64,000 nucleotides of DNA from Shigella phage JK23: the sequence record MK962752; one strand, written 5' to 3'. Below, one piece after another: positions 1,037-62,781 of the stretch (the stretch's first letter is position 1; each line of letters begins with the position of its first letter). Position numbers and translations under genes: made by a program. The notes under the pieces were generated by a model, which worked only from the letters and a program-made list of their open reading frames with translations, made no database searches and had not been told where the DNA came from.

Positions 1037-3016
1037 ATGACTTTATTATCTCCGGGCATTGAGCTCAAAGAAACTACGGTTCAAAGCACCGTGGTTAATA
1101 ACTCTACTGGTACAGCAGCTTTGGCCGGTAAATTCCAGTGGGGTCCTGCTTTTCAGATTAAACAGGTTACAAACGAAGTAGATTTAGTTAATACTTTTGG
1201 TCAACCTACAGCTGAAACTGCTGACTATTTTATGTCTGCAATGAATTTCTTACAATATGGAAATGATTTGCGAGTTGTGCGCGCTGTCGATAGAGATACC
1301 GCTAAAAACTCATCTCCGATTGCTGGTAATATTGAATACACAATTTCTACCCCAGGTAGTAACTACGCGGTTGGAGATAAAATCACGGTCAAATATGTTT
1401 CAGAAGATGTTGAAACAGAAGGTAAAATTACCGAAGTAGATGCTGATGGAAAAATTAAGAAAATTAATATTCCTACTGCAAAAATTATTGCTAAAGCTAA
1501 AGAAGTTGGCGAATACCCAACATTAGGTTCTAACTGGACTACAGAAATTTCTTCATCTTCTTCCGGTTTAGCTGCAGTAATAACTCTTGGAAAAATTATT
1601 ACTGATTCCGGTATTTTATTAGCTGAAATCGAGAGCGCTGAAACTGCTATGACAGCAGTTGATTTTCAGGCAAATCTTGAAAAATATGGAATTCCAGGAG
1701 TAGTAGCTCTCTATCCAGGCGAATTAGGCGATAAAATTGAAATTGAAATCGTATCTAAAGCTGACTATGCGAAAGGCGCTTCTGCATTACTGCCAATTTA
1801 TCCAGGTGGTGGTACTCGTGCATCTACTGCCAAGGCAGTATTTGGATATGGGCCGCAGACTGACTCACAGTACGCTATTATAGTTCGTCGAAATGATGCT
1901 ATTGTTCAAAGCGTTGTTCTTTCAACTAAGCGTGGTGAAAAAGATATTTACGATAGTAACATCTATATTGATGACTTTTTCGCAAAAGGTGGTTCAGAAT
2001 ATATTTTCGCAACTGCGCAAAACTGGCCAGAAGGCTTCTCTGGAATTTTAACTCTGTCTGGTGGATTATCATCAAATGCTGAAGTAACAGCAGGAGATTT
2101 GATGGAAGCTTGGGACTTCTTTGCTGACCGCGAATCTGTTGACGTTCAGTTGTTTATTGCGGGTTCTTGTGCCGGTGAATCTCTTGAAACAGCATCTACT
2201 GTCCAAAAACATGTTGTTTCAATTGGTGATGCTCGTCAAGATTGCTTAGTATTGTGCTCACCTCCGCGTGAAACTGTAGTTGGAATTCCTGTAACTCGTG
2301 CAGTAGATAATTTAGTTAACTGGAGAACTGCAGCAGGTTCATACACTGATAATAACTTTAATATCAGTTCAACCTACGCAGCAATTGATGGTAACTACAA
2401 ATATCAGTATGACAAATATAATGATGTGAATCGTTGGGTTCCATTAGCAGCTGATATTGCTGGTTTATGCGCAAGAACTGATAACGTATCTCAGACTTGG
2501 ATGTCTCCAGCTGGTTATAATCGTGGCCAGATTCTTAACGTTATTAAACTTGCTATTGAAACTCGCCAAGCTCAGCGCGACCGTTTATACCAAGAAGCTA
2601 TTAATCCAGTAACTGGTACAGGTGGCGATGGTTACGTATTGTATGGTGATAAAACAGCTACTTCTGTTCCTTCTCCATTTGATCGTATTAACGTTCGTCG
2701 TCTGTTTAATATGTTGAAAACGAATATCGGACGTAGTTCAAAATATCGTTTGTTCGAATTAAACAACGCGTTTACTCGTTCATCATTCCGCACAGAAACT
2801 GCCCAATACTTACAGGGAATTAAAGCTCTCGGTGGAATTTATGAATATCGTGTAGTTTGCGATACAACAAATAACACTCCGTCAGTAATTGATAGAAATG
2901 AGTTTGTTGCAACATTCTACATTCAACCGGCTAGAAGCATTAACTACATTACCTTGAACTTCGTAGCAACTGCTACTGGTGCAGATTTCGATGAGTTAAC
3001 TGGTCTTGCTGGTTAA
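1037..3016 (+). CDS. 18: tail sheath protein gp18
   Basis: 659-aa ORF, ATG 1037 after AGAGGA RBS and late promoter; length and position match T4 gp18. Confidence 0.93.
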   Translation: MTLLSPGIELKETTVQSTVVNNSTGTAALAGKFQWGPAFQIKQVTNEVDLVNTFGQPTAETADYFMSAMNFLQYGNDLRVVRAVDRDTAKNSSPIAGNIEYTISTPGSNYAVGDKITVKYVSEDVETEGKITEVDADGKIKKINIPTAKIIAKAKEVGEYPTLGSNWTTEISSSSSGLAAVITLGKIITDSGILLAEIESAETAMTAVDFQANLEKYGIPGVVALYPGELGDKIEIEIVSKADYAKGASALLPIYPGGGTRASTAKAVFGYGPQTDSQYAIIVRRNDAIVQSVVLSTKRGEKDIYDSNIYIDDFFAKGGSEYIFATAQNWPEGFSGILTLSGGLSSNAEVTAGDLMEAWDFFADRESVDVQLFIAGSCAGESLETASTVQKHVVSIGDARQDCLVLCSPPRETVVGIPVTRAVDNLVNWRTAAGSYTDNNFNISSTYAAIDGNYKYQYDKYNDVNRWVPLAADIAGLCARTDNVSQTWMSPAGYNRGQILNVIKLAIETRQAQRDRLYQEAINPVTGTGGDGYVLYGDKTATSVPSPFDRINVRRLFNMLKTNIGRSSKYRLFELNNAFTRSSFRTETAQYLQGIKALGGIYEYRVVCDTTNNTPSVIDRNEFVATFYIQPARSINYITLNFVATATGADFDELTGLAG

Positions 3017-3032
3017 TACGGTGCATTCTAAA

Positions 3033-3050
3033 GGCCTGTTTCGGCAGGCC
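3033..3050 (+). terminator. hairpin after gene 18
   Basis: GGCCTG...CAGGCC inverted repeat. Confidence 0.5.
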
Positions 3051-3051
3051 A

Positions 3052-3059
3052 TATAAATA
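3052..3059 (+). promoter_or_regulatory. late promoter TATAAATA (gene 19, distal)
   Basis: Exact motif just after the gene 18 terminator hairpin. Confidence 0.6.
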
Positions 3060-3110
3060 CACTATATCCTTAATTCTTTAATTCTATATGCCCTAGGTTA
3101 AACATAGGGA

Positions 3111-3118
3111 TATAAATA
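3111..3118 (+). promoter_or_regulatory. late promoter TATAAATA (gene 19, proximal)
   Basis: Exact motif 15 bp upstream of ATG. Confidence 0.65.
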
Positions 3119-3132
3119 CTACAGAGGCTAAT

Positions 3133-3624
3133 ATGTTTGTAGATGATGTAACACGAGCGTTTGAATCTGGTGATTTTGCTCGACCTAACTTATTCCAAGT
3201 AGAAATTTCTTATCTTGGACAAAATTTTACATTCCAATGTAAAGCCACTGCTTTACCAGCTGGTATTGTAGAAAAAATTCCAGTCGGATTTATGAACCGT
3301 AAAATTAACGTAGCAGGCGATCGTACATTCGATGACTGGACTGTTACAGTAATGAACGATGAAGCTCATGATGCTCGCCAGAAGTTTGTTGATTGGCAAA
3401 GCATTGCTGCTGGTCAAGGAAACGAAATTACTGGTGGAAAACCTGCAGAGTATAAAAAGAGCGCTATTGTTCGTCAATATGCTCGTGATGCTAAAACAGT
3501 AACAAAAGAAATTGAAATTAAAGGTCTGTGGCCTACTAACGTGGGTGAACTTCAATTAGATTGGGATTCAAACAATGAAATCCAAACCTTTGAAGTAACT
3601 CTTGCTCTCGATTATTGGGAATAA
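3133..3624 (+). CDS. 19: tail tube protein gp19
   Basis: 163-aa ORF after two TATAAATA late promoters; length/position match T4 gp19. Confidence 0.93.
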   Translation: MFVDDVTRAFESGDFARPNLFQVEISYLGQNFTFQCKATALPAGIVEKIPVGFMNRKINVAGDRTFDDWTVTVMNDEAHDARQKFVDWQSIAAGQGNEITGGKPAEYKKSAIVRQYARDAKTVTKEIEIKGLWPTNVGELQLDWDSNNEIQTFEVTLALDYWE

Positions 3625-11988: not shown

Positions 11989-13407
11989 TTATGGATAGGT
12001 ATAGATGATACCAGTTTCTAAAGCAGTTTTATGAATGATGTATCCATTACGCGATTCTTGAACATCAACTTCTGGATAGTCTTTCATCATCTTCTGAAGA
12101 GTGTAACGATGTAGGTAATATTTACTATCTGGGTCGTCAGTTTTCCAATCTTTACCTTCTTCGGTCATTTTTTGGATTTCATCCATAACCCACCAACCGC
12201 ACCAGATATAAGCTGAAGTACGATGTGGAAGAGGATGAACATAAGGTAGTTCACCTTCTGGTTCTGGAGCAACTTTATCAGTTACCTGAACTTGACCTTC
12301 TGCTGTAATAGTTTTGCTATCGTAATCAGTTGCAGTAACGACAGCAGTAACTTCAATAGTTTGACTTCCAACAGATGAGGTATCGACAGTATATACGTTA
12401 GTTGACCCTTCTACAGGAGAAGAATCTTTCTTCCATGAGTAAGTAATTTGTGCTTCTTCTGGAGCACCCGTAACATTAGCCGTAAATGTAGCCGAAGCAT
12501 CTTGCTGAACATTAATAGAAGGAGGAGTCAATGTAACCTGTGGATTCATTGTCTTCTTATTAACTGTCAATGATACTTCATTAGAAGTAACTTCCTTTTC
12601 ATTGTAATTTTCAGCAGTTACTTGAGCTACGCATTTAATTCTTTTTACTCCACTTGTAGTTGGAGTATAGTTAAATGTAGAGTTAGTTTCTCCACCAATT
12701 TGTGAATCATCTACATACCACTGATACGTAGCAGACGCTCCATCAGGTTGAGAAGCTAAGGCAGCAGTAAATTGAACTGGGGTTCCGATTACTCCCGCTG
12801 GAGGACTATCAGGAGTTACTGCCAAAGTAGTTGTCTGCGTCTTTTTATTAACAGTCAGTGACACTTCATTGGAAGTAACTTCCTTTGTATCATAATCTGT
12901 CGCGGTTACTTGAGCTACGCACTTAATTGTTTTAACTCCGCTTGCGTCAGGAGTGTAATTGAATGTAGTGCTAGTTGCTTCGCCCACAGGAGAACCGTCA
13001 ACGTACCATTGATACGTAGCGTTTGCACCTGATGGCTGTGAAGCTAAGGCAGCGGTAAATTCAATTGGAGTTCCAATCACTCCAGCATCAGGGCTACCAG
13101 GAGTTACTGCCAAAGTAGTTGTTTGTGTCTTATTTTGAACTGTGATAGTTGTACTAATTTCAGCTGTTTCAGGTTCAGATTCTGCAACTTGATTGGTTGC
13201 AACTACTTTAATAGTCTTTTGACCGGCAGGTCCTTTTAGTACATAACTAAAAGTTGCTGACGTTTCTTCCTGTGGAGCGTCGTCTACAGTCCAAGCATAT
13301 GTAATAGTTCCGCCTCCAGTTTCACCACTGGGTGTAGCAGTAAACTGCTTAGTTTCATCAATAACCCCTGTCGGTGTTTTAGGAGTTATATCAACTGTAA
13401 AAGTCAT
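11989..13407 (-). CDS. hoc: highly immunogenic outer capsid protein Hoc (4 Ig-like domains)
   Basis: 472-aa ORF of Thr/Val-rich Ig-like repeats with C-terminal capsid-binding region; translationally coupled downstream of inh. Confidence 0.85.
   Translation of the reverse strand: MTFTVDITPKTPTGVIDETKQFTATPSGETGGGTITYAWTVDDAPQEETSATFSYVLKGPAGQKTIKVVATNQVAESEPETAEISTTITVQNKTQTTTLAVTPGSPDAGVIGTPIEFTAALASQPSGANATYQWYVDGSPVGEATSTTFNYTPDASGVKTIKCVAQVTATDYDTKEVTSNEVSLTVNKKTQTTTLAVTPDSPPAGVIGTPVQFTAALASQPDGASATYQWYVDDSQIGGETNSTFNYTPTTSGVKRIKCVAQVTAENYNEKEVTSNEVSLTVNKKTMNPQVTLTPPSINVQQDASATFTANVTGAPEEAQITYSWKKDSSPVEGSTNVYTVDTSSVGSQTIEVTAVVTATDYDSKTITAEGQVQVTDKVAPEPEGELPYVHPLPHRTSAYIWCGWWVMDEIQKMTEEGKDWKTDDPDSKYYLHRYTLQKMMKDYPEVDVQESRNGYIIHKTALETGIIYTYP
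12556..13131 (-). repeat. tandem pair of ~288-bp units encoding two near-identical 96-aa Ig-like domains within hoc
   Basis: Protein residues 93-188 and 189-284 are about 85 percent identical (KTQTTTLAVTP...EVSLTVNK). Confidence 0.8.
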
Positions 13408-24511: not shown

Positions 24512-24565
24512 TCCTCATGTTATGTCAGTAAGACTACTATAACACAACACGAGGGACTTGTAAAC
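24512..24565 (-). repeat. 54-bp exact repeat, copy 1 (early promoter plus leader)
   Basis: Identical to 40482-40535. Confidence 0.9.
24536..24565 (-). promoter_or_regulatory. early promoter (-35 GTTTAC, -10 TATAGT)
   Basis: On - strand GTTTAC, 18-bp spacer, TATAGT, then GAGGA RBS; inside 54-bp repeat. Confidence 0.55.
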
Positions 24566-26622
24566 TACATTTTGAACTTTTTAGACATTCCGTTGATGTT
24601 AACCAAAGAAGCTAATATTTGAGAAACTTCGTTTTCCTCTTCTTTTGATTCTTCTACAAGGAATTGATTAAATCCAGCCATTGGACGAACTTCACCAGTT
24701 TCCATTAAATGGTCGCCATCATATACTGATTCTTCTAATTGGTCAGAAGGAGGAACGATTGTACCTTCGATTAGATACTTGTTATAAGCAGTTTCTTTCA
24801 TAAAGTACGTACTTACTTTATTAATCTTTAGTAAAATTCCGCGCGGTAGAATAACTTCAGCTTCTGATGGAAATCCTGATAAATGACCCGGAACGATAAC
24901 TTTGATTCGCTCAGCTCCTTTAATTACCATACCCACGCTAGTTTCAGCATCTTCATTAGCATATGTAGAATGACTACCCATATGCATCAAATCTTCTGCA
25001 TCAACAGAACCTTCTCCTTCGCCAGAAAATACTGCACCGGAATCATCTAGAGCCATATAGTTTTTACCATGCTCACCGAAGATATTTGGTTTAAGCGATG
25101 TCGATACGAAGTTCTTGAAATAGAACATTTTGTTTTCAATGTTATGACGCAAAGTTTTAAAGGTAACTTCTTGTCCACGATAAAGCGTAGTTCCTGGAGG
25201 AAGAACTGAACCTTTAGCGAATGCAGAATCCAACGTCTCAATGTGCTTAATAGCTCGTTCCATATATTCTTCACGGGTAGAATCTGGTTTACCCAAAAGG
25301 AACGAGTTCATTTCAACATATGAATCTGCACAATAATCTTCAATTACATCAGACTCAGCCTGAGTCAGTCCTTTTGGAGTTACTTCAGTGCTTGCGTATT
25401 CATATGCCTGAGCAGCAGATTCATTAATCAATTTATAAATGCCATTCATGACAAATTGAATAATAGCTGTCTTTTCATCTGGCGTAGCTTTAGAACCTTT
25501 AACCAAATCATTGATAATTTTCTTAATAACATCAAAGCTATTAGAAATATTAATATCAGCAAGATCGCTTAAAATTTTATCAGTTTTATAATCAAAGAAT
25601 TCTTTATTCTTTAAATATTCTTGAGAACCTTGATATGTTATATCGCTCTGCAACTTGATAGATGGATCACGTAAACGTGCATGGGCCAATGCAATATGAT
25701 TTCGGAAGTTTTCTAGTTCATAATCGCTAGATTTAAAACGAGAAGCACTTCTCATACCACCGATAGCTCCTTTGCCGAAGTTTGAACCAATCTGGATAAC
25801 GCCAGAGTTCATCGGACCTTCTGCTTTATATACCGGAACTTTAGATTCAAACTCTTGATATTTCTTGGCAGCGAAGCCATCACCCTGAAGTGAAGCATCG
25901 ACAGTAGAATATTGAGCTTGTGCTGCTAATCGACGACTAATTTTAGTTTTTTGAATAACAGCTTGATCCGTGCGCTTATCATTTTCTAAAGCAATAGAAG
26001 CAGCAACAGCGACAGCTTTAGGAACAGCATTACCTGTTTTAACATCTACATAAACATCACCGACCTTTGATTCAACTTTTGTGAATAACTCGGTTGAAAT
26101 AGGAGGTACACCTGGAATGTCTTCTAAATTGGCATTTTTACGGTAAACCATAATATATGCGTACTTTTTATCATAGTCCCAGATTTCCTTTAAAAGAACA
26201 TATCGACCTGCTCCTTTAGTACGTACTAAACGGTCAGCAATAACTTGCATTTGACGAGCTGCGCCATTTGTTTTACTTTTTAGTACGCGGAATAGACATG
26301 CGTCGATTTTATACTGTTTCATTGTTTGAAGAGCAGTATCAAAAACGGCATTAATGACACCAATTGGATTTCCACCCAAGTTTTTAAGCTTAACTAATGA
26401 TAGTTTCTCATTAACACCTATCATTACGATATGCATCATTTTATCGCCTGGTTTAACGTTTTTATTCGTATCACCACCAGAGGTGTATGTACAAAATCTA
26501 AATCCAGGAAGCACGCTTTCTTCGCCGGCTTGAATAGCAAAAATTTGTGGTATTTTATGCTTAGGATTTAAGTTAACAACCGGCGCCGAAGCGCCGTCAA
26601 ATAATTCTGTAATAAGTTCCAT
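24565..26622 (-). CDS. alt: Alt-like ADP-ribosyltransferase, paralogue 1
   Basis: 685-aa ORF; N-terminal MELITELFD (prohead-protease LxE site); C-terminal R-S-E ART motifs YRGQ / STSL / EAEVILPRG. Confidence 0.85.
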   Translation of the reverse strand: MELITELFDGASAPVVNLNPKHKIPQIFAIQAGEESVLPGFRFCTYTSGGDTNKNVKPGDKMMHIVMIGVNEKLSLVKLKNLGGNPIGVINAVFDTALQTMKQYKIDACLFRVLKSKTNGAARQMQVIADRLVRTKGAGRYVLLKEIWDYDKKYAYIMVYRKNANLEDIPGVPPISTELFTKVESKVGDVYVDVKTGNAVPKAVAVAASIALENDKRTDQAVIQKTKISRRLAAQAQYSTVDASLQGDGFAAKKYQEFESKVPVYKAEGPMNSGVIQIGSNFGKGAIGGMRSASRFKSSDYELENFRNHIALAHARLRDPSIKLQSDITYQGSQEYLKNKEFFDYKTDKILSDLADINISNSFDVIKKIINDLVKGSKATPDEKTAIIQFVMNGIYKLINESAAQAYEYASTEVTPKGLTQAESDVIEDYCADSYVEMNSFLLGKPDSTREEYMERAIKHIETLDSAFAKGSVLPPGTTLYRGQEVTFKTLRHNIENKMFYFKNFVSTSLKPNIFGEHGKNYMALDDSGAVFSGEGEGSVDAEDLMHMGSHSTYANEDAETSVGMVIKGAERIKVIVPGHLSGFPSEAEVILPRGILLKINKVSTYFMKETAYNKYLIEGTIVPPSDQLEESVYDGDHLMETGEVRPMAGFNQFLVEESKEEENEVSQILASLVNINGMSKKFKM

Positions 26623-26625
26623 GAT

Positions 26626-28722
26626 TTATCCTTGAACGAACTTGTAAGGCATGTTTGTAATATCTATGCAAGACGCAATAATTCCAAGAGATGATTCTAC
26701 TTTCTGTTTAACATTTGATGAAACAAATGATGCAAAGTCAACTCTGTCTTCTACTTCAATATCACCTGTCATTGCAACTACTTCGCCGGTTTCCATTAGA
26801 TGGTCACCGTCATAAATTACCGATTCGGTGAGTTCTTCTGTGGTCATAACTTCAGCTTGAATAAGTTTTGTATTATTAGATGTTGTTCCGTCATTATTAG
26901 AAGCATCAGTTATTTTATTAACTTTAACCATCAATCCGCGCGGTAGAATAACTTCAGCTTCTGTTGCTATTCCGAGACTTCCTGGATATACAACATTAAC
27001 TTTATGAGCTCCATCAATTGCCCATCCTATTTGAACTTTAACGTATTCAGGATTTTCTTTATACGCTCTTATTTCGTTTGGATTAATAGTTATTCCTTCT
27101 TCATTTTTATCAACTGTTAATTCATTGCGAGCTTCTGGTTCTAAAAGACCAATACCAGCATGTGTAATTCCAAAACGTCCAAAAATGATAGGAGTTAAAG
27201 AAGTAGATACAAAATTTCTGAAATAGAACACTTTATTTTTAACTAGTGCTTCGTATATAGGAGCAGTCATACTTTGAGCACGATAAACTGTAATGCCTTC
27301 TGGTATACGGTCACCATTTTCAAAAGCTGAATCTAAATTATTTATAGCAGATTCAATTTCTTTTTCACTCATTATATCATATCGTTCTGGATTGTAACGA
27401 CCTAAAAGAAGATTATTGATGTCTGTATATCCTGAACCACAATACTCTCTAATGCCGCGCTTTTGTGATGGAGTATATTTAGAACCATCACGGGCAATAG
27501 TAATATCAATCATTGGACCTGCACCAATTCCGGAAAAGCTATAAATCATTCGTTTGAGGAATTTAGTTTTTGCTGCATTCCAGGCATTTTTAGTTATTTC
27601 TCCCCAGACTTCATCTGGCTGCCCTTTACGAGTTTTATTATGTTTATCAAGCCAATTATCTTTATATTCTTCAAATAATTGATTAACAGCTGCTGCGTAT
27701 TTCTCTAAACATTTTATTGAAGTAGTTGGTTCATTTTTAATCGCATTAAGAATTACATCTTTAATTTTTTCTGAAACTTCACCGACTTGACTCATTGGAA
27801 AGAATTTATAATCATAGTGAAGTTCATCTGCCGTTCCTTCAGCAATAATTTTTGCTGCCTTAGTTTTAGAAGCTAATGAATTAATTCCAAGCTTCATTTC
27901 TTCTGCTTCGGGAATTAAAGGTGCAGTAGCAGGTTTATTGAAATTAGCTGCGGTAGATTCATACTTCTGGAATAATTCACTTTCAAATCTAGAAGATTCC
28001 AATGACTGACTTTGTGCAATTGCTCTACGGGAAATTTTAACTTTAACGATTACGGCTTGGTCAGAACGTTTATCGTTTTCTTGTGCAATAGATGCAGCAA
28101 TTGCCTCATTTTTGGTTACTTGAGCTCCAGTATCTTTATTAATATAAACATCACCGACCTTCGATTCAACTTTAGTAAAGAGCTCGGTACTAATTTCCGG
28201 AACTCCTGGAATGTCTTCTAGTGATACATTTTTGCGATGTATAAGAATATATGCATACTTTTTATCATAATCCCAGAGTTCCTTAAGAAGGACGTATCTG
28301 CCACCTGAACGACTACGGATAAGTCTATCAGCAATAACTTGAATTTGTCGAGCTTGGCCAGCAGTTTTAGACTTAAGAATACGAAGCATACAAGCATCAA
28401 TTTTATACTGACGCATTGTTTGCATTGCAACAGTAAAAACTGAATTGATATAATTAATTGGGCTTGGACCAAGACCTTTTAATTTAGCAATTGAACCTTT
28501 AGCAGTTAATGTAAAAGGAACAATATGCATCATTTTATCGCCCATTTTTAAATCACGATTAGTATCACCTCCAGATGTATAGGTACATAAACGAAAGCCT
28601 GGTTGTTCAATTGCATCATCAACATGAACTGAAAAAATTTGTGGTATTTTCTTCTTTGGATTTAAGTTTGTAATCGGAAGAGTAGTATCTTCGTCAAATA
28701 ATTCTGTAATGAGTTCCATCAT
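26626..28722 (-). CDS. alt: Alt-like ADP-ribosyltransferase, paralogue 2
   Basis: 698-aa ORF; same N-terminal MELITELFD and C-terminal YRAQ / STSL / EAEVILPRG motifs, divergent central region; late promoter upstream. Confidence 0.85.
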   Translation of the reverse strand: MMELITELFDEDTTLPITNLNPKKKIPQIFSVHVDDAIEQPGFRLCTYTSGGDTNRDLKMGDKMMHIVPFTLTAKGSIAKLKGLGPSPINYINSVFTVAMQTMRQYKIDACMLRILKSKTAGQARQIQVIADRLIRSRSGGRYVLLKELWDYDKKYAYILIHRKNVSLEDIPGVPEISTELFTKVESKVGDVYINKDTGAQVTKNEAIAASIAQENDKRSDQAVIVKVKISRRAIAQSQSLESSRFESELFQKYESTAANFNKPATAPLIPEAEEMKLGINSLASKTKAAKIIAEGTADELHYDYKFFPMSQVGEVSEKIKDVILNAIKNEPTTSIKCLEKYAAAVNQLFEEYKDNWLDKHNKTRKGQPDEVWGEITKNAWNAAKTKFLKRMIYSFSGIGAGPMIDITIARDGSKYTPSQKRGIREYCGSGYTDINNLLLGRYNPERYDIMSEKEIESAINNLDSAFENGDRIPEGITVYRAQSMTAPIYEALVKNKVFYFRNFVSTSLTPIIFGRFGITHAGIGLLEPEARNELTVDKNEEGITINPNEIRAYKENPEYVKVQIGWAIDGAHKVNVVYPGSLGIATEAEVILPRGLMVKVNKITDASNNDGTTSNNTKLIQAEVMTTEELTESVIYDGDHLMETGEVVAMTGDIEVEDRVDFASFVSSNVKQKVESSLGIIASCIDITNMPYKFVQG

Positions 28723-40481: not shown

Positions 40482-40535
40482 TCCTCATGTTATGTCAGTA
40501 AGACTACTATAACACAACACGAGGGACTTGTAAAC
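40482..40535 (-). repeat. 54-bp exact repeat, copy 2 (early promoter plus leader of alc)
   Basis: Identical to 24512-24565. Confidence 0.9.
40506..40535 (-). promoter_or_regulatory. early promoter of alc (-35 GTTTAC, -10 TATAGT)
   Basis: Identical sequence to 24536-24565. Confidence 0.55.
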
Positions 40536-53075: not shown

Positions 53076-56000
53076 ATGGCCGAGATTAAAAGAAAGTTCA
53101 GAGCAGAAGATGGTCTGGACGCAGGTGGCGATAAAATAATCAACGTAGCTTTAGCTGACCGTACCGTAGGAACTGACGGTGTTAACGTTGATTACTTAAT
53201 TCAAGAAAACACAGTTCAGCAATATGATCCAACTCGTGGATATTTAAAAGATTTTGTAATCATTTATAATAATCGTTTTTGGGCAGCAACGGATAATATT
53301 CCAAAACCTGCTGGAAATTTTAATAGAATTCGTTGGAAAGCATTACGTACTGATGCCGTATATACAACCGTATCATCTGGACCATATCAATTAAAATCCG
53401 GAGAAGCAATTTCAGTAGATACATCAGTTGGCAATGACATTGAGTTTACTTTACCACCTTCTCCGCTTGATGGAGAAACCGTAATAATTCAAGATATCGG
53501 TGGAAAACCTGGCATAAATCAGGTTAAAATAAATTCTTCAAATCAGAGTATTGTCAATTTTAGAGGTGAACAGGTACGTTCAGTTTTAATGACTCATCCA
53601 AAGTCACAGATGATATTCATTTTTAATAATCGTTTGTGGCAAATGTATGTTGCTGATTATAGCAGAGAAGCTGCGATTGTTACTCCATCGACTGCGTATC
53701 AAGCACAATCTAATGATTTTATCGTACGTAGATTTACTTCTGCTGCACCAATTAATGTTAAACTTCCGAGATTTGCTAATCATGGCGATATTATTAATTT
53801 CGTTGATTTAGATAAACTGAATCCACTTTATCATACAATTGTTACTACATACGATGAAACGACTTCAGTACAAGAAGTTGGAACTCATTCCATTGAAGGC
53901 CGTACATCGATTGACGGTTTCTTGATGTTTGACGATAATGAGAAATTGTGGAGATTGTTTGACGGGGATAGTAAAGCACGTTTACGCATTATAACAACTA
54001 ATTCAAATATTCGTCCAAATGAAGAAGTCATGGTATTTGGCGCGAATAATGGAACAACCCAAACAATTGAACTTCAGCTTCCGACTGATATTTCTGTTGG
54101 TGATACTGTTAAAATTTCCATGAATTACATGAGAAAAGGACAAACAGTTAAAATCAAAGCTGCTGGTGAAGATAAAATTGCTTCTTCAGTTCAATTGCTG
54201 CAATTCCCAAAACGTTCAGAATATCCGCCTGAAGCTGAATGGGTAACAGTTCAAGAATTAGTTTTTAATGGTGAAACTAATTATGTACCAGTTTTGCAAC
54301 TTGCTTATATAGAAGATTCTGATGGAAAATACTGGGTTGTACAGCAAAACGTTCCAACAGTTGAAAGAGTCGATTCTTTAAATAATTCTACTAGAGCAAG
54401 ATTAGGCGTAATTGCTTTAGCTACACAAGCTCAAGCAAATGCTGATTTAGAAAATTCTCCACAAAAAGAATTAGCAATTACTCCAGAAACGTTAGCTAAT
54501 CGTACTGCTACTGAAACTCGCAGAGGTATTGCAAGAATAGCAACTACTGCTCAAGTAAATCAGAACACCACATTCTCTTTTGCAGATGACCTTATCATCA
54601 CTCCTAAAAAGCTGAATGAAAGAACTGCTACAGAAACTCGCAGAGGTGTTGCTGAAATTGCTACGCAGCAGGAAACTAATACAGGTATCGATGATACTAC
54701 AATCATCACTCCTAAAAAGCTTCAAGCTCGTCAAGGTTCTGAAACATTATCGGGTATTGTAACTTTTGTATCTACTGCAGGAGCTACTCCAGCTTCTAGT
54801 CGTGAATTAAATGGTACAAATGTTTATAATAAAAACACTAATAATTTAGTTGTTTCACCTAAAGCTTTGGATCAGTATAAAGCTACTCCAACGCAACAAG
54901 GCGCAGTAATTTTAGCAGTTGAAAGTGAAGTAATTGCTGGACAAAGCCAAGAAGGATGGGCAAATGCGGTTGTAACACCAGAAACGTTACATAAAAAGAC
55001 ATCAACTGATGGAAGAATTGGTTTAATTGAAATTGCTACGCAAAGCGAAGTTAATACAGGAACTGATTATACTCGCGCAGTCACTCCTAAAACTTTAAAT
55101 GACCGTAGAGCAACTGAAAGTTTAAGTGGTATAGCTGAAATTGCTACGCAAGTTGAATTCGACGCAGGCGTCGACGATACTCGTATCTCTACACCATTAA
55201 AAATTAAAACCAGATTTAATAGTACTGATCGTACTTCTGTTGTTGCTCTATCTGGATTAGTTGAATCAGGAACTCTCTGGGACCATTATACCCTTAATAT
55301 TCTTGAAGCAAATGAGACACAGCGTGGTACACTTCGTGTAGCTACACAAGTTGAAGCTGCTGCAGGAACATTGGATAATGTTCTAATAACTCCTAAAAAG
55401 CTTTTAGGTACTAAATCTACTGAAGCACAGGAAGGCGTTATTAAAGTTGCAACTCGGTCTGAAACTGTAGCTGGAACGTCAGCAAATACTGCTGTATCTC
55501 CAAAAAATTTAAAATGGATTGTGCAGAGTGAACCTACTTGGGCAGCGACTACTGCGATAAGAGGTTTTGTTAAAACTTCGTCTGGTTCAATTACATTCGT
55601 TGGTAATGATACAGCTGGTTCAACACAGCCATTAGAATCATATGAGAAAAATGGTTATGCAGTATCACCATATGAATTAAATCGCGTATTAGCAAATTAT
55701 TTGCCATTAAAAGCAAAAGCCGTAGATAGTAATTTATTAGATGGTCTAGATTCGCTCCAGTTCATTCGTAGGGACATTGCACAAACAGTTAATGGTTCAC
55801 TAACCTTAACCCAACAAACGAATCTGGGTGCCCCTCTTGTATCATCTAGTACTGCTACATTCGGTGGATCAGTTTCAGCAAATAGTACATTAACTATTTC
55901 TAATACTGGAACGGCAACTCGTCTGATTTTTGAGAAAGGACCTCAAACTGGAACAAACCCGGCTCAAACGATGACAGTCAGAGTGTGGGGAAATCAATTT

Positions 56001-56945
56001 AGCGGGGAATCAGACACAACACGTTCTACCGTATTTGAAGTTAGTGATGAAACGTCTAGTCATTTTTATTCTCAGCGTAATAAAGCTGGAAATATAACAT
56101 TTAATATCAACGGTACAGTAACACCGATAAATGTTAATGCTTCAGGAACATTGAATGCAAATGGTGTAGCAACATTTGGTAATTCAGTCACTGCAACTGG
56201 TGAAATTATTTCTCGAAGCGCAAATGCTTTCCGTGCTATTAACGGAAATTATGGTTTCATTGTTCGCAATGATGGATCAGTAACGAATTTTATGCTTACT
56301 GCATCAGGCAATCAGACTGGTGGATTTAATGGATTACGTCCATTGTCCATTAATAATCAATCTGGGCAGGTCACAATTGGTGAAAGCTTGATCATTGCTA
56401 AAGGTGCTACTATAAATTCAGGTGGTTTAACTGTTAACTCGAGAATTCGTTCTCAAGGTGTTAAAACATCTGATTTATATACCCGTGCGCCGACATCTGA
56501 TACTGTAGGATTCTGGTCAATCGATATTAATGATTCAGCCACTTATAACCAGTTCCCGGGTTATTTTAAAATGGTTGAAAAAACTAATGAAGTTACTGGA
56601 CTTCCATACTTAGAACGTGGTGAAGAAGTTAAATCTCCTGGTACATTGACTCAGTTTGGTAACACACTTGATTCACTTTACCAAGATTGGATTACTTATC
56701 CAACGACCCCAGAAGCACGTACCACTCGCTGGACACGTACATGGCAGAAAACCAAAAACTCTTGGTCAAGTTTTGTTCAGGTATTTGACGGAGGTAACCC
56801 TCCTCAACCTTCAGATATAGGAGCGATCCCATCTGATAATGGAATAATAGGTAATCTTACTATTCGCGATTTCTTACGAATTGGTAATGTTCGCATTATT
56901 CCTGACCCAGTGAATAAAACTGTTAAATTTGAATGGGTTGAATAA
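53076..56945 (+). CDS. 34: long tail fibre proximal subunit gp34
   Basis: 1289-aa ORF (T4 gp34 length) after TATAAATA; internal ~40-aa repeats. Confidence 0.93.
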   Translation: MAEIKRKFRAEDGLDAGGDKIINVALADRTVGTDGVNVDYLIQENTVQQYDPTRGYLKDFVIIYNNRFWAATDNIPKPAGNFNRIRWKALRTDAVYTTVSSGPYQLKSGEAISVDTSVGNDIEFTLPPSPLDGETVIIQDIGGKPGINQVKINSSNQSIVNFRGEQVRSVLMTHPKSQMIFIFNNRLWQMYVADYSREAAIVTPSTAYQAQSNDFIVRRFTSAAPINVKLPRFANHGDIINFVDLDKLNPLYHTIVTTYDETTSVQEVGTHSIEGRTSIDGFLMFDDNEKLWRLFDGDSKARLRIITTNSNIRPNEEVMVFGANNGTTQTIELQLPTDISVGDTVKISMNYMRKGQTVKIKAAGEDKIASSVQLLQFPKRSEYPPEAEWVTVQELVFNGETNYVPVLQLAYIEDSDGKYWVVQQNVPTVERVDSLNNSTRARLGVIALATQAQANADLENSPQKELAITPETLANRTATETRRGIARIATTAQVNQNTTFSFADDLIITPKKLNERTATETRRGVAEIATQQETNTGIDDTTIITPKKLQARQGSETLSGIVTFVSTAGATPASSRELNGTNVYNKNTNNLVVSPKALDQYKATPTQQGAVILAVESEVIAGQSQEGWANAVVTPETLHKKTSTDGRIGLIEIATQSEVNTGTDYTRAVTPKTLNDRRATESLSGIAEIATQVEFDAGVDDTRISTPLKIKTRFNSTDRTSVVALSGLVESGTLWDHYTLNILEANETQRGTLRVATQVEAAAGTLDNVLITPKKLLGTKSTEAQEGVIKVATRSETVAGTSANTAVSPKNLKWIVQSEPTWAATTAIRGFVKTSSGSITFVGNDTAGSTQPLESYEKNGYAVSPYELNRVLANYLPLKAKAVDSNLLDGLDSLQFIRRDIAQTVNGSLTLTQQTNLGAPLVSSSTATFGGSVSANSTLTISNTGTATRLIFEKGPQTGTNPAQTMTVRVWGNQFSGESDTTRSTVFEVSDETSSHFYSQRNKAGNITFNINGTVTPINVNASGTLNANGVATFGNSVTATGEIISRSANAFRAINGNYGFIVRNDGSVTNFMLTASGNQTGGFNGLRPLSINNQSGQVTIGESLIIAKGATINSGGLTVNSRIRSQGVKTSDLYTRAPTSDTVGFWSIDINDSATYNQFPGYFKMVEKTNEVTGLPYLERGEEVKSPGTLTQFGNTLDSLYQDWITYPTTPEARTTRWTRTWQKTKNSWSSFVQVFDGGNPPQPSDIGAIPSDNGIIGNLTIRDFLRIGNVRIIPDPVNKTVKFEWVE

Positions 56946-58131: not shown

Positions 58132-58782
58132 ATGGCTGATTTAAAAGTAGGTTCAACTGTTGGTGGATCTGTCATTTGGCATCAAGGAAATTTTCCATTG
58201 AATTCAGCCGGTGACGATGTACTCTACAAATCATTTAAAATATATTCAGAATATAATAAACCGCAGGCAGCTGATAACGATTTCGTTTCTAAAGCTAATG
58301 GTGGTACTTACACCGGTCCAATTACTATTAATTACGGGGTAAATAGTTATCTTCAATTAAGTAATAATGAAACCCCCATCCGAATTCGTTCTGGTGGCGG
58401 CACTGGTAATACTCTTGTAGTTGGTGGCTCTTCTGGCGGTATTAGTTTTAGACCAGCAGGTAGTGAAATCACTACTGGACAAATTACTATTACGCCAGAA
58501 GGTTTGACAACATTTACCAAAGCTGTAACGGCTCCATCTGTAACTGTCACATCTACTCCTTCCGCAGCATCTGATGCTACTCGTAAAGATTATGTTGATG
58601 GAGCAATAAATACTGTTACAGCAAATGCAAACTCTAGGGTATTACGCTCTGGAGACACTATGACAGGAAATTTAACTGCGCCAAACCTTTTTTCACAGAA
58701 TCCTGCATCTCAACCTTCACACGTTCCACGATTTGACCAAATCGTAATTAAGGATTCTGTTCAAGATTTCGGCTATTATTAA
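58132..58782 (+). CDS. 36: long tail fibre distal connector gp36
   Basis: 216-aa ORF after TATAAATA. Confidence 0.9.
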
Positions 58783-58790
58783 GAGGACTT

Positions 58791-60710
58791 ATGGCTACTT
58801 TAAAACAAATACAATTTAAAAGAAGCAAAACTGCAGGTCAACGTCCTGCTGCTTCAGTATTAGCCGAAGGTGAATTGGCTATAAACTTAAAAGATAAAAC
58901 AATTTTCACAAAAGATGACTCAGGTAGTGTTATAGAATTAGGTTTAAAATATGGAGGAACAATTGATGGTTCTTTAACTGTTAATGGAAATATAATTGGA
59001 AATTTAACAGGTAACGCTGCAACTGCAACGAAATTAAAAACAGCACGAAAAATTAATGGTATATCCTTTGATGGGTCAAAGGATATCACGCTAACTCCAT
59101 CTGACATAAATGTCAATAGCACAACATTTATAAAAAATAATGGCGAATTACCTGTTGATGCTAATTTAGATGAGTATGGGCCTGTTGAAGAATATCTTGG
59201 TGTTTGGTCGAAAGCAACTTCAACCAACGCTCAACCAGCAAATAAATTTCCAGAAGAAAATGCTGTAGGTGTGCTAGAAGTATTTGTGGCCGGTCAATTT
59301 GCTGGTACTCAGAGATATACAACTAGATACGGAAATGTTTATATTCGTTCCTTGACTGCTACATGGAACGGAGTAAATGGTCCGTGGAGTGTGTGGCGAA
59401 ATATTCAATCCGGTACTCGTCCACTGTCAACAACAATTGATCTTAATGATCTAGGAGGCGCTGAACACTTTGGTTTGTGGCGAAATAGTTCAAATTCCAT
59501 TGCTACCTTTGACAGAAATTTCCCAGAAGAGGGGTCGTCAGCTCAAGGTCTTTTGGAAGTATATGAAGGTGGAAACTATTCTCGTACACAAAGATATACA
59601 ACCAGATTTGGTGTTGTATATACTCGTTGTCTTGCTGCCGCGTGGGATGCTTCCGCGCCTAAATGGGGACCGTGGCAACAAGTCGGTAATGTCACACCAG
59701 CGACTTTCTATGACGGAGATCTGAATGATTTTAAAACCCCTGGGTTATATAATATTTTAGGCACTGATGCCGTTATTAACTGTCCTACAGGTGAAGGTTT
59801 GCCGACTGTTATTGTTGGTTTGCTGGAAGTTAAACAACGTGCTTCTGGCGGTGCTATTTTCCAAAAATTTACTACTGCCGGAACGGGTGCAACTACTCGC
59901 GATCGTATTTTTGAGCGTGCATATACTGGTGGTGTGTGGGGTGCATGGAACGAAGTATATACATCTTACTCTCTGCCAATTACTTTAGGTATGGGTGGTA
60001 TTAAAACTCAATTAGCGGAGCTAGATTGGCAAACATTTGATTTTGTTCCTGGTAGTATGTTTAGCGTTCCTTTGAACAAAATAAAGAACATGCCAGCTAA
60101 TATGAATTGGGGCACGATTGACGGAAACTTAATTATGTTTTCTGTTGGTCCTAGCGAGCACACCAGCACAGGACGTACTGTTCAGGTTTGGCGTGGAACT
60201 GTATCCCAGACAAACTATCGTTATTTTGTCGTTCGTGTGTTCGGTAATTCTGGAAATAGAACTTGCACAGTTCGCCGTGTTGTTCTTGAAGACGGATCAC
60301 ATACTTGGACTGCTCAACAAAACTTTAGGGGATTGCTGAATATCACTGCTGCTGTTAATCTTGGTGCTAATCAGAAAATTTCACTTGCTCCAGGAGCATA
60401 TATTCAAGCCCCTGCTAGCGGTTCTGGTTCTAATACTTACGCAAATCAGAATACTACCATTGCGCCATTATATCAGGCTATTGACGATTCAAATAAAAAC
60501 CAGTTTGCGCCAATTGTTAAACAGAAAAATACTGTAAGTAATATCACCTTTGCCACTGGTATGGCTATAGGTACATCCGAATATAAGATCATTGCTCAGG
60601 GTGATTTATCCGCTGATGGAACAGCAGATGGGTTAAAACAGTGGACTTTCATGCCGTCAGGTTATTTTAAATCTCCAGGGCGTGTATATGTCATTATATC
60701 AGGCTATTGA
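58791..60710 (+). CDS. 37: long tail fibre distal subunit gp37, N-terminal 639-aa ORF ending at a frameshift
   Basis: ATG 58791; frame terminates at TGA 60708-60710, 17 bp into the second copy of a 226-bp tandem duplication. Confidence 0.85.
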
Positions 60711-60917
60711 CGATTCAAATAAAAACCAGTTTGCGCCAATTGTTAAACAGAAAAATACTGTAAGTAATATCACCTTTGCCACTGGTATGGCTATAGGTAC
60801 ATCCGAATATAAGATCATTGCTCAGGGTGATTTATCCGCTGATGGAACAGCAGATGGGTTAAAACAGTGGACTTTCATGCCGTCAGGTTATTTTAAATCT
60901 CCAGGGCGTGTATATGT
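60466..60917 (+). repeat. perfect tandem direct duplication, 2 x 226 bp, inside gene 37
   Basis: 60466-60691 is base-for-base identical to 60692-60917; 226 is not a multiple of 3. Confidence 0.95.
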
Positions 60918-61962
60918 CGGTGATGCGTTCCTTAATACAGATGGTAATATTGCCGGTTCAATCTGGAAGAAATATAACAATGCGACAAATTTAGATGCTG
61001 CCTTGAATACTCGCGTAGGTAAAGGCGGTGATACGATGACAGGTCGGTTAACAATCAATGCACCTAATGATTCTATTGTATTATCAACGACTGCTAGTAA
61101 TTCTTTGCATATTCGTGGTGACATAGACGGGACTGGTAACTGGTATATTGGTAAGGGTGGTGCTGATAATTCGCTAGCATTTTATAGCTATGCTTCTCAG
61201 GCGGCAGTACATATCACAAACAATGGTGAGATTGCGTTAAACCCGCAAAATACCGCAATGGTTAACGTTAACCGTGACCGTGTACACATTAACGGTTCTG
61301 GATGGATTGCTAGACAACCGGGTGATTGGGGCAACCAATGGCGAGTAGAAGCTCCATTATTCGTTGATCATGGTTATGTTTCACAGGATTGTTATTATCC
61401 TATTCTTAAAGCAAGAAGCGTTATAACCAATCAAGGATATAGCACCGCTGTTGACTTTGGTATGCGTCGTATTCCATCACAGTGGGGGCAAGCAATCATT
61501 CGTGTCGGATCCACGGAGGCTTCTCCTGATGCTGGACACCCACAAGCTATATTTGAATTCCATCATGATGGATTCTTTTATACACCAGGAAATGGTAGCT
61601 TTAGCGATGTGTATATTCGTTCTGACTCCCGTCTCAAGATTAATAAAGAAGAATTAGAATATGGAGCGGTCGAAAAAGTTTGCCGACTGAAAGTTTATAT
61701 TTACGATAAAGTTAAGTCTATTAAAGACCGTAGTGTTATTAAACGTGAAGTTGGTATTATTGCTCAGGACCTTGAAAAGGAATTACCGGAAGCTGTATCT
61801 AAAGTTGAAGTTGATGGATCTGATGTTCTGACAATTTCTAACTCTGCTGTGAATGCTCTTTTAATTAAGGCTATTCAGGAAATGAGTGAAGAAATTAAAG
61901 AATTGAAAACGCCTCTCTTTACTAAAATTGCTCGCAAAATTAGTAAATATTTTAAATTCTAA
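60682..61962 (+). pseudogene. 37: gp37 C-terminal portion (+1 frame relative to N-terminal ORF), including C-terminal chaperone-like domain
   Basis: No ATG (track start is GTG); repeats residues [10 protein letters not shown]...SPGRVYV of the upstream ORF, then continues; C-terminus has SDSRLKINKEEL motif typical of tail-fibre intramolecular chaperone domains. Confidence 0.8.
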
Positions 61963-61998: not shown

Positions 61999-62781
61999 AT
62001 GGCAGTAGTTGGTGTTCCTGGTTGGATTGGAAGTTCAGCCGCAAATGAAACAGGACAGCGCTGGATGAGTCAAGCGGCTGGTCAATTAAGATTGGGTGTT
62101 CCTTGCTGGATGAGTCAATTTGCAGGTCGCTCACGAGAAATTATTCACACGCTTGGAGCAGACCATAACTTCAATGGTCAATGGTTCCGAGATAGATGTT
62201 TTGAGGCAGGTAGTGCACCTATAGTGTTTAATATTACAGGTGATTTAGTATCATATTCTAAAGATGTTCCTTTATTCTTCATGTACGGAGATACACCAAA
62301 TGAATATGTTCAGTTAAATATACATGGCGTAACGATGTATGGACGTGGCGGTAATGGTGGTAGCAATAGTCCTGGCTCAGCTGGAGGTCATTGTATTCAA
62401 AACGATATTGGTGGGAGACTAAGAATTAATAATGGTGGAGCTATTGCTGGCGGCGGTGGCGGCGGTGGCGGCGGATATTATTCTCCTTTTTCACAAATGA
62501 GATTAACCTTTGGCGGTGGTGGTGGGCGTCCGTTTGGTGCACCTGGCGGATCTATTGATATGCAATCAGGCGCAACTGCTGGTACTATTTCTGCACCTGG
62601 CTCAGGATCCGTGAATGGTATCTATAATGGTGGAAACGGTGGTGAAGTAGGTTCCGCGGGAGGTAGATGCAATATTCGCGGTCAAGGATCTGAATATAAT
62701 GGCGGCGCTGCTGGTTATGCTGTCATAGGGTCTGCTCCAACGTGGCAAAATGTTGGAGCAATATATGGTCCAAGAGTATAA
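61999..62781 (+). CDS. 38: tail fibre adhesin gp38 (T2/T6 type, glycine-rich motifs)
   Basis: 260-aa ORF with conserved N-terminus and C-terminal Gly-rich blocks ([16 protein letters not shown]). Confidence 0.9.
62449..62475 (+). repeat. (GGN)9 trinucleotide tract encoding poly-Gly in gp38
   Basis: ggcggcggtggcggcggtggcggcgga read directly. Confidence 0.9.

Follow-up and report, generated by a model that had tools for sequence, protein, structure and literature searches.

The distal long-tail-fibre gene 37 of Shigella phage JK23 is interrupted, in its deposited form, by a perfect tandem duplication of 226 bp, and we are highly confident that this duplication is not biology: it would be an artefact of genome finishing, made when overlapping contig ends were joined untrimmed. 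The window analysed here is a stretch of 64,000 nucleotides of the JK23 record (MK962752, 168,349 bp; Kaczorowska et al. 2019, PMC6832132), and coordinates count from its first base. The study that deposited this record used Illumina MiSeq 2x250 bp sequencing, assembly with MIRA v4.0.2 and ORF calling with Prodigal, and the paper that describes the phage leaves the split of gene 37 unmentioned (PMC6832132).

Both copies of the repeated unit are on the plus strand. The first (60466-60691) covers codons 559-634 of gp37, in the shaft region, each of its edges falling between the first and second base of a codon, and the second (60692-60917) follows it directly and is 100% identical to it. String comparison and a repeat search agree that 226 of 226 bases are the same, and TRF returns a period of 226, 2.0 copies, 100% matches and a score of 906. 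There are two copies only, in direct tandem and identical in sequence, as overlapping contig ends should be, and a perfect repeat of this length cannot have arisen by chance. The match runs one base beyond the unit (C at 60466, 60692 and 60918), with the consequence that the copy boundary is ambiguous by 1 bp and that there is no real microhomology at the junction. No other direct repeat of the 64-kb window exceeds 75 bp at an identity of 90% or more and, at 226 bp, this one is shorter than a single 250-nt read.

As 226 = 3x75+1, the repeat shifts the frame of gp37 by +1, and a stop codon is met 17 nt past the junction. The first open reading frame, ORF1 (58791-60710, plus strand), carries gp37 residues 1-634 followed by the out-of-frame IISGY and a TGA at 60708-60710; its 639 aa are 100% identical to QEG05285.1, the 639-aa 'large distal tail fiber subunit' of Shigella phage JK23. 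The second, ORF2 (60688-61962, plus strand, +1 frame), carries the repeated segment and gp37 residues 635-981, with the gp37_trimer and Peptidase_S74 domains, and from its ATG at 60688 it is the same (100%) as QEG05286.1, a CDS of 424 aa called by the GenBank annotators. Open from 60637, the +1 frame overlaps that of ORF1 by 74 nt (60637-60710); besides the ATG at 60688, preceded by a weak AGGG 7 nt upstream, it offers an in-frame GTG at 60682. When one copy is deleted in silico, the two frames merge into 2946 nt coding for 981 aa without an internal stop, a product that aligns colinearly, free of indels, with gp37 of Escherichia phage 107, likewise 981 aa long. The repeated unit (residues 559-634 of 981) lies upstream of the gp37_trimer and S74 domains identified by Pfam, the S74 intramolecular-chaperone domain (PF13884) belonging to the C-terminal part of gp37. 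The first-pass annotation, made from the letters of the DNA, had thus read the lesion correctly in most respects: the exact repeat, the +1 shift, the truncation at 639 aa by the TGA at 60708-60710, the ORF of about 981 aa restored by removal of one copy, the chaperone-like domain past the frameshift (found as PF13884 in ORF2) and the gp38 adhesin partner (the downstream gene, with PF05268 and PF21721) were all recovered. It went astray in stating that the +1 frame has no ATG of its own.

The surroundings of the gene are those of a T-even long-tail-fibre module, where Pfam matches and the annotation of relatives give the order gene 34 (53076-56945), gene 35, gene 36, gene 37, the gene 38 adhesin, holin t and asiA. 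Its Pfam matches are PF05268 (3e-72), PF21721 (6e-20), PF13884 (2e-10) and PF20744 (2e-6). The small distal fibre subunit gp36 (58132-58782, plus strand) is intact, and so is the gp38 adhesin of the T2/T6 type (61999-62781, plus strand; PF05268 and PF21721), a protein with Gp38_N and GP38 domains that is encoded directly downstream of a gp37 with Peptidase_S74 at its C-terminus. This is the arrangement of the T2/T6-type distal fibre, in which the C-terminus of gp37 is cleaved and the fibre is capped by gp38 (PMC3157838), and the gene underlying the JK23 repeat is an ordinary T2/T6-type gp37.

A comparison with gene 37 of close relatives, as the first-pass annotation had proposed, speaks for a single copy without exception. 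All 190 of the 190 phage records matching positions 60000-61400 of the window (1401 bp) span 1175 bp, that is, 1401 - 226, the length expected when the unit is present once. The best of these matches, phage 107 (99.6%), has a single copy that is base-for-base the same as the unit of JK23. A 40-mer or a 26-mer drawn across the junction has no exact match in collections of viral sequences, metagenomes and genome contigs, and the repeat is therefore private to the record, with relatives in single copy and a junction without match elsewhere, as an overlap of contig ends would be. The exact products of ORF1 and of both variants of ORF2 were not found on the assembled contigs searched. A protein identical to the gp38 of JK23 is encoded on at least 24 other contigs, and gene 37 is uninterrupted (981-1031 aa) on 10 of the 10 inspected contigs that carry it. 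The gp37 proteins of phage 107 (OQ599309), APTC-EC-2A (OK274152), G4498 (NC_054918) and CM8 have in common with that of JK23 a gp38 partner and an S74 chaperone; the collapsed JK23 protein is 98-99% identical to those of APTC-EC-2A and G4498 over ORF1 and differs from that of phage 107 by 56 substitutions, and in comparison with these four proteins the second 226-bp copy exists only in the JK23 record. We also sought a single-copy gene 37 with 100% identity from independent sequencing; the best matches stand at 98-99%, so that they provide no same-strain control for JK23. The closest long relative is G4498 (98.9% over 24 kb), and a comparison of 88 of its CDS with the window shows a break in gene 37 only, two more CDS being clipped by the ends of the window; the other compared CDS being intact, the sequence of the window is otherwise clean.

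The sister genomes deposited by the same study provide what we take, at the level of sequence comparison, to be the decisive test of the artefact reading. JK38, CM8 and JK45 were inspected in full, JK23 over its 64-kb window, and JK36 and JK42 around genes 34-38, while JK32 was left out. In JK38 (MK962755) a stretch of 730 bp is repeated with 100% identity within gene 37 (155327-156056 = 156057-156786). It is the sole large repeat of that genome, it has 0 bp of microhomology and, as 730 = 3x243+1, it too shifts the frame by +1: gene 37 is annotated there as two CDS, of 906 aa and 594 aa, which collapse to a single ORF of 1253 aa, and phage QOTSP, 100.0% identical to JK38 across the duplicated region, has it in single copy and serves for JK38 as the kind of control that JK23 lacks. 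In CM8 (MK962750, RefSeq NC_054939) the only large repeat, of 974 bp (71366-72339 and 72340-73313, 99.2% identity), lies in the ipI-ip5-57B region and leaves a truncated extra copy of 57B; the relatives listed among 778 matching records (T4_ev240, RB14) have the region once. Between the copies of CM8 there are 8 mismatches, clustered next to a short repeated intergenic element, a hint of local mis-joining and not of a clean overlap. JK45 (MK962757, RefSeq NC_054940), finally, has its only large repeat, of 503 bp with 100% identity (2412-2914 and 2915-3417), beside rIIA.1, in a region that is single-copy in the close relatives listed (APCEc01 and others) among 156 matching records. Each of the three genomes inspected in full thus carries one private duplicate, and JK23 one in its 64-kb window. 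No duplicate of gene 37 was found in JK36, JK42 or JK45. The 1091-aa gp37 and the long fibres of JK36 had been considered as the possible outcome of an in-frame duplicate, an idea rejected when no repeat was found.

The end of the rIIA CDS is the exact starting point of the JK38, CM8 and JK45 records, which implies that these were re-oriented after assembly. The first base of the JK23 window aligns to position 95,844 of G4498, an offset that fits a JK23 record likewise starting at rIIA, its orientation being deduced from the 64-kb window, and that places the JK23 duplicate at about 156.4 kb. On the map, the duplicates of JK23 and JK38 nearly coincide (about 155-157 kb); both lie in gene 37, even though the phages have different types of gp37. 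With two of four joins in a gene that makes up about 2% of the genome, the ends of the contigs were not placed at random; our guess is that similar coverage profiles steered the points where MIRA started and stopped or, alternatively, that polymorphism at a hypervariable locus did so.

We can therefore understand the signature left in these genomes, one private, perfect or nearly perfect duplicate per genome, blind to frame and to gene, in a set of which three sister records are rIIA-first, as that of an untrimmed closure. The sequence of events would have been as follows. The DNA of T-even phages being circularly permuted, their reads would assemble as a circle, from which MIRA 4.0.2, an overlap-layout assembler working here on 2x250-nt reads, may have produced a linear contig of slightly more than one turn. 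A stretch of 226 bp, less than one read length, would hence have been present at both ends of the contig. When the authors reset the start of the record to rIIA, following the T4 convention, the old ends would have been joined head to tail with the overlap kept, so that it now appears doubled in tandem at the place of these old ends, which would have happened to fall within gene 37. Prodigal would then have made two ORFs, of 639 and 424 aa, out of the gene of a real phage that presumably has one copy and a normal gp37 of 981 aa. The join between 60691 and 60692, where GTATATGT is followed by CATTATAT, is the proposed site where the old contig ends were concatenated; the cut-and-join step itself we infer. 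An untrimmed end overlap in contigs that exceed 100% of a circularly permuted phage genome is a documented artefact (Turner et al. 2021, Phage Annotation Guide, PMC8785237). The JK23 case resembles it in having two perfect copies produced in one event, private to the record and indifferent to frame and gene boundaries. It differs in that the documented duplicate is as a rule found at the extremities of the record, whereas that of JK23 is internal and mimics a mutation of gene 37, presumably because the record was rotated after assembly.

What is known of the living phage points in the same direction. A T-even phage without gp37 is fibre-less and non-infectious, and the deposited genotype of JK23 cannot, for this reason, be that of the working phage. 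No phage of its collection has a wider host range than JK23, to which 54% of the test strains were susceptible; its plaques on K12 measure 2-3 mm, and its morphology is T4-like (PMC6832132). Its free fibres measure 125 +/- 1 nm, against 126 +/- 11 nm for CM8, a phage with an intact gp37 of 981 aa (PMC6832132). Host range, plaques and fibre length do not fit a broken gp37, and they contradict the defective distal fibre that the first-pass annotation had foreseen. That annotation had also listed an assembly artefact among its options, and this option now finds strong support in the single-copy relatives, the duplicates of the sister genomes and the phenotype of JK23; its other proposals, a very recent event or a high-frequency reversible switch, are disfavoured by the lesions at non-fibre loci of CM8 and JK45 and by the infectivity of the phages.

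Among the alternatives to the artefact, the one that survives best, while still improbable in our judgement, is a real and recent tandem duplication in part or all of the JK23 lysate, whose junction reads would have been threaded into the consensus. Genomes with a defective gene 37 would then be carried by complementation from the wild type, and be regenerated and resolved by recombination of the T4 type. T4 does form tandem duplications, and these are unstable, which lends this account some substance. Duplications in gene 37 can moreover be selected (Tetart 1996, cited in PMC3157838), and both the JK23 and the JK38 cases hit that gene, a known hot spot of plasticity (PMC3157838). Yet both are out of frame and lethal for fibre assembly, while the phages were plaque-purified, are highly infectious and have fibres of normal length; microhomology at the junctions amounts to 0 (JK38) or 1 bp (JK23); the same lesion, one per genome, is found at unrelated non-fibre loci in CM8 and JK45; and nothing like it is seen in hundreds of relatives sequenced elsewhere. 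The lesion of JK38 had raised the idea of a phenomenon specific to gene 37, which was dropped as the main explanation because the same type of lesion occurs at the non-fibre loci of CM8 and JK45. A stronger form of the proposal, to which we give still less credence, is that the duplication is physically present in the stocks of JK23 (and of JK38) and that, in T-even lysates, out-of-frame tandem duplications reversible by recombination occur at appreciable frequency at a single spot of gene 37. If this were true, fibre-less 'off' genomes that revert by homologous recombination would constitute a heritable and reversible switch of adsorption.

A precedent for a biological origin is provided by the T4 gene 37 duplications that widen host range (Tetart, Repoila, Monod & Krisch 1996, J Mol Biol 258:726, cited in PMC3157838). 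The likeness is one of location, a tandem duplication in the distal long-tail-fibre gene of a T-even phage, and the differences are several. The T4 duplications are in frame and give functional fibres, whereas that of JK23 shifts the frame by +1, which would abolish the fibre; they concern the C-terminal adhesin domain of a T4-type gp37, whereas the JK23 unit belongs to the shaft of a T2/T6-type gp37 (residues 559-634); and they take place between short repeated motifs, whereas the identity at the JK23 junction is of 1 bp only, a chance level. Neither a longer, in-frame adhesin nor end points at motifs of the C-terminal adhesin are thus found in JK23.

Another way to save the deposited sequence would be to suppose that the split gene is real and functional, either because its two products assemble or because ribosomes shift by +1, perhaps as a reversible on/off switch; the shift, at a site within 60637-60710, would yield a gp37 of 1056 aa with an in-frame repeat of 75 aa. 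The in-frame ATG at 60688 with its AGGG, the 74-nt overlap of the frames and the infectivity of JK23 (PMC6832132) could be invoked in its favour, and we nevertheless regard it as very improbable. The late-promoter motif TATAAATA is absent between 58102 and 62100, gene 37 included, and the AGGG is weak. No slippery or prfB-like shift site can be recognised on reading the sequence at TAT-TGA-C. No relative has the gene split: other truncated calls aside, no homologous case appears among 1949 homologues. The fibres of JK23 are as long as those of CM8, made with a 981-aa gp37 (PMC6832132). If two products were made, they would form two non-covalent trimeric pieces. We know of no route by which such pieces would be joined. 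The weakest reading, which we find barely credible, takes the two copies for a short direct terminal repeat at the fixed physical ends of the genome, brought together by rotation of the map. A rotated genome of that kind would indeed show one tandem repeat, but headful packaging by terminases of the T4 type permutes the ends circularly and at random, the repeats lie within coding sequence at four different loci in close relatives, and short-read assemblers collapse direct terminal repeats where a duplication is seen here.

Taken as an artefact, the JK23 duplication has almost no biological significance, and its value is one of curation. Spurious tandem duplicates, one to a record, are present in no fewer than four public T-even entries of a single study: JK23 (MK962752), JK38 (MK962755), CM8 (MK962750, RefSeq NC_054939) and JK45 (MK962757, RefSeq NC_054940). 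Those of JK23 and JK38 split the gene for the receptor-binding fibre, and the two bogus proteins that each split yields have spread to nr and UniRef (for JK23, QEG05285.1 and QEG05286.1). Host-range prediction, catalogues of receptor-binding proteins and counts of pseudogenes are misled by such records. A rule for the scanning of genomes can be drawn from this: when a re-oriented phage genome shows a tandem repeat that is perfect, private and blind to frame, a closure artefact is the first thing to suspect, and the rule covers repeats from less than the length of a read to the ~1 kb reached in the sister genomes.

Several observations made along the way concern gene 37 in other contexts. Complete E. 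coli genomes gave a sole match, at 1928760-1929969 of NZ_CP098223.1, with 83.5% DNA identity to part of gene 37, in a prophage fibre gene annotated as 'pyocin knob domain-containing S74 family peptidase'. It was set aside as a related copy of gene 37, the match being to an unrelated prophage fibre gene at 83.5%; the similarity suggests, on the strength of the DNA alignment, that fibre modules may have been exchanged between prophage and T-even phages. Three C-terminal fragments of gp37, of 391-396 aa, are annotated on contigs of about 166 kb that are labelled E. coli but belong to T4-like phages included in bacterial assemblies. Other assemblies, it seems, also have a cut or broken gene 37, the fragments starting within the same segment (MAIGTSEYK...). 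A contig labelled Shigella sonnei encodes a mosaic gp37 of 1070 aa, the N-terminal ~680 aa of which are of the phage 107 type, followed by a different, T4-like C-terminal adhesin and chaperone region.

The window contains other repeats of a different nature. A perfect direct repeat of 54 nt (24512-24565 and 40482-40535), its copies 16 kb apart, lies with one copy in the intergenic gap that follows alt and the other in that which follows rnlA, on the minus strand, and is kept at the same places in CM8 (120272 and 135449) and JK38 (118846 and 134248). Read on the minus strand, it resembles a T4 early promoter (GTTTAC...TATAGT) with a GAGGA ribosome-binding site behind it. At 12551-13126, a 288-nt tandem repeat with 77% identity, in a gene for a Hoc-like head-decoration protein, probably corresponds to repeated Ig-like domains. 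Two adjacent paralogues of Alt-like ADP-ribosyltransferases (24574-28719) appear as direct repeats about 2.1 kb apart, and one of them, only about 71% identical to its counterpart in G4498, is the most divergent stretch of the window.
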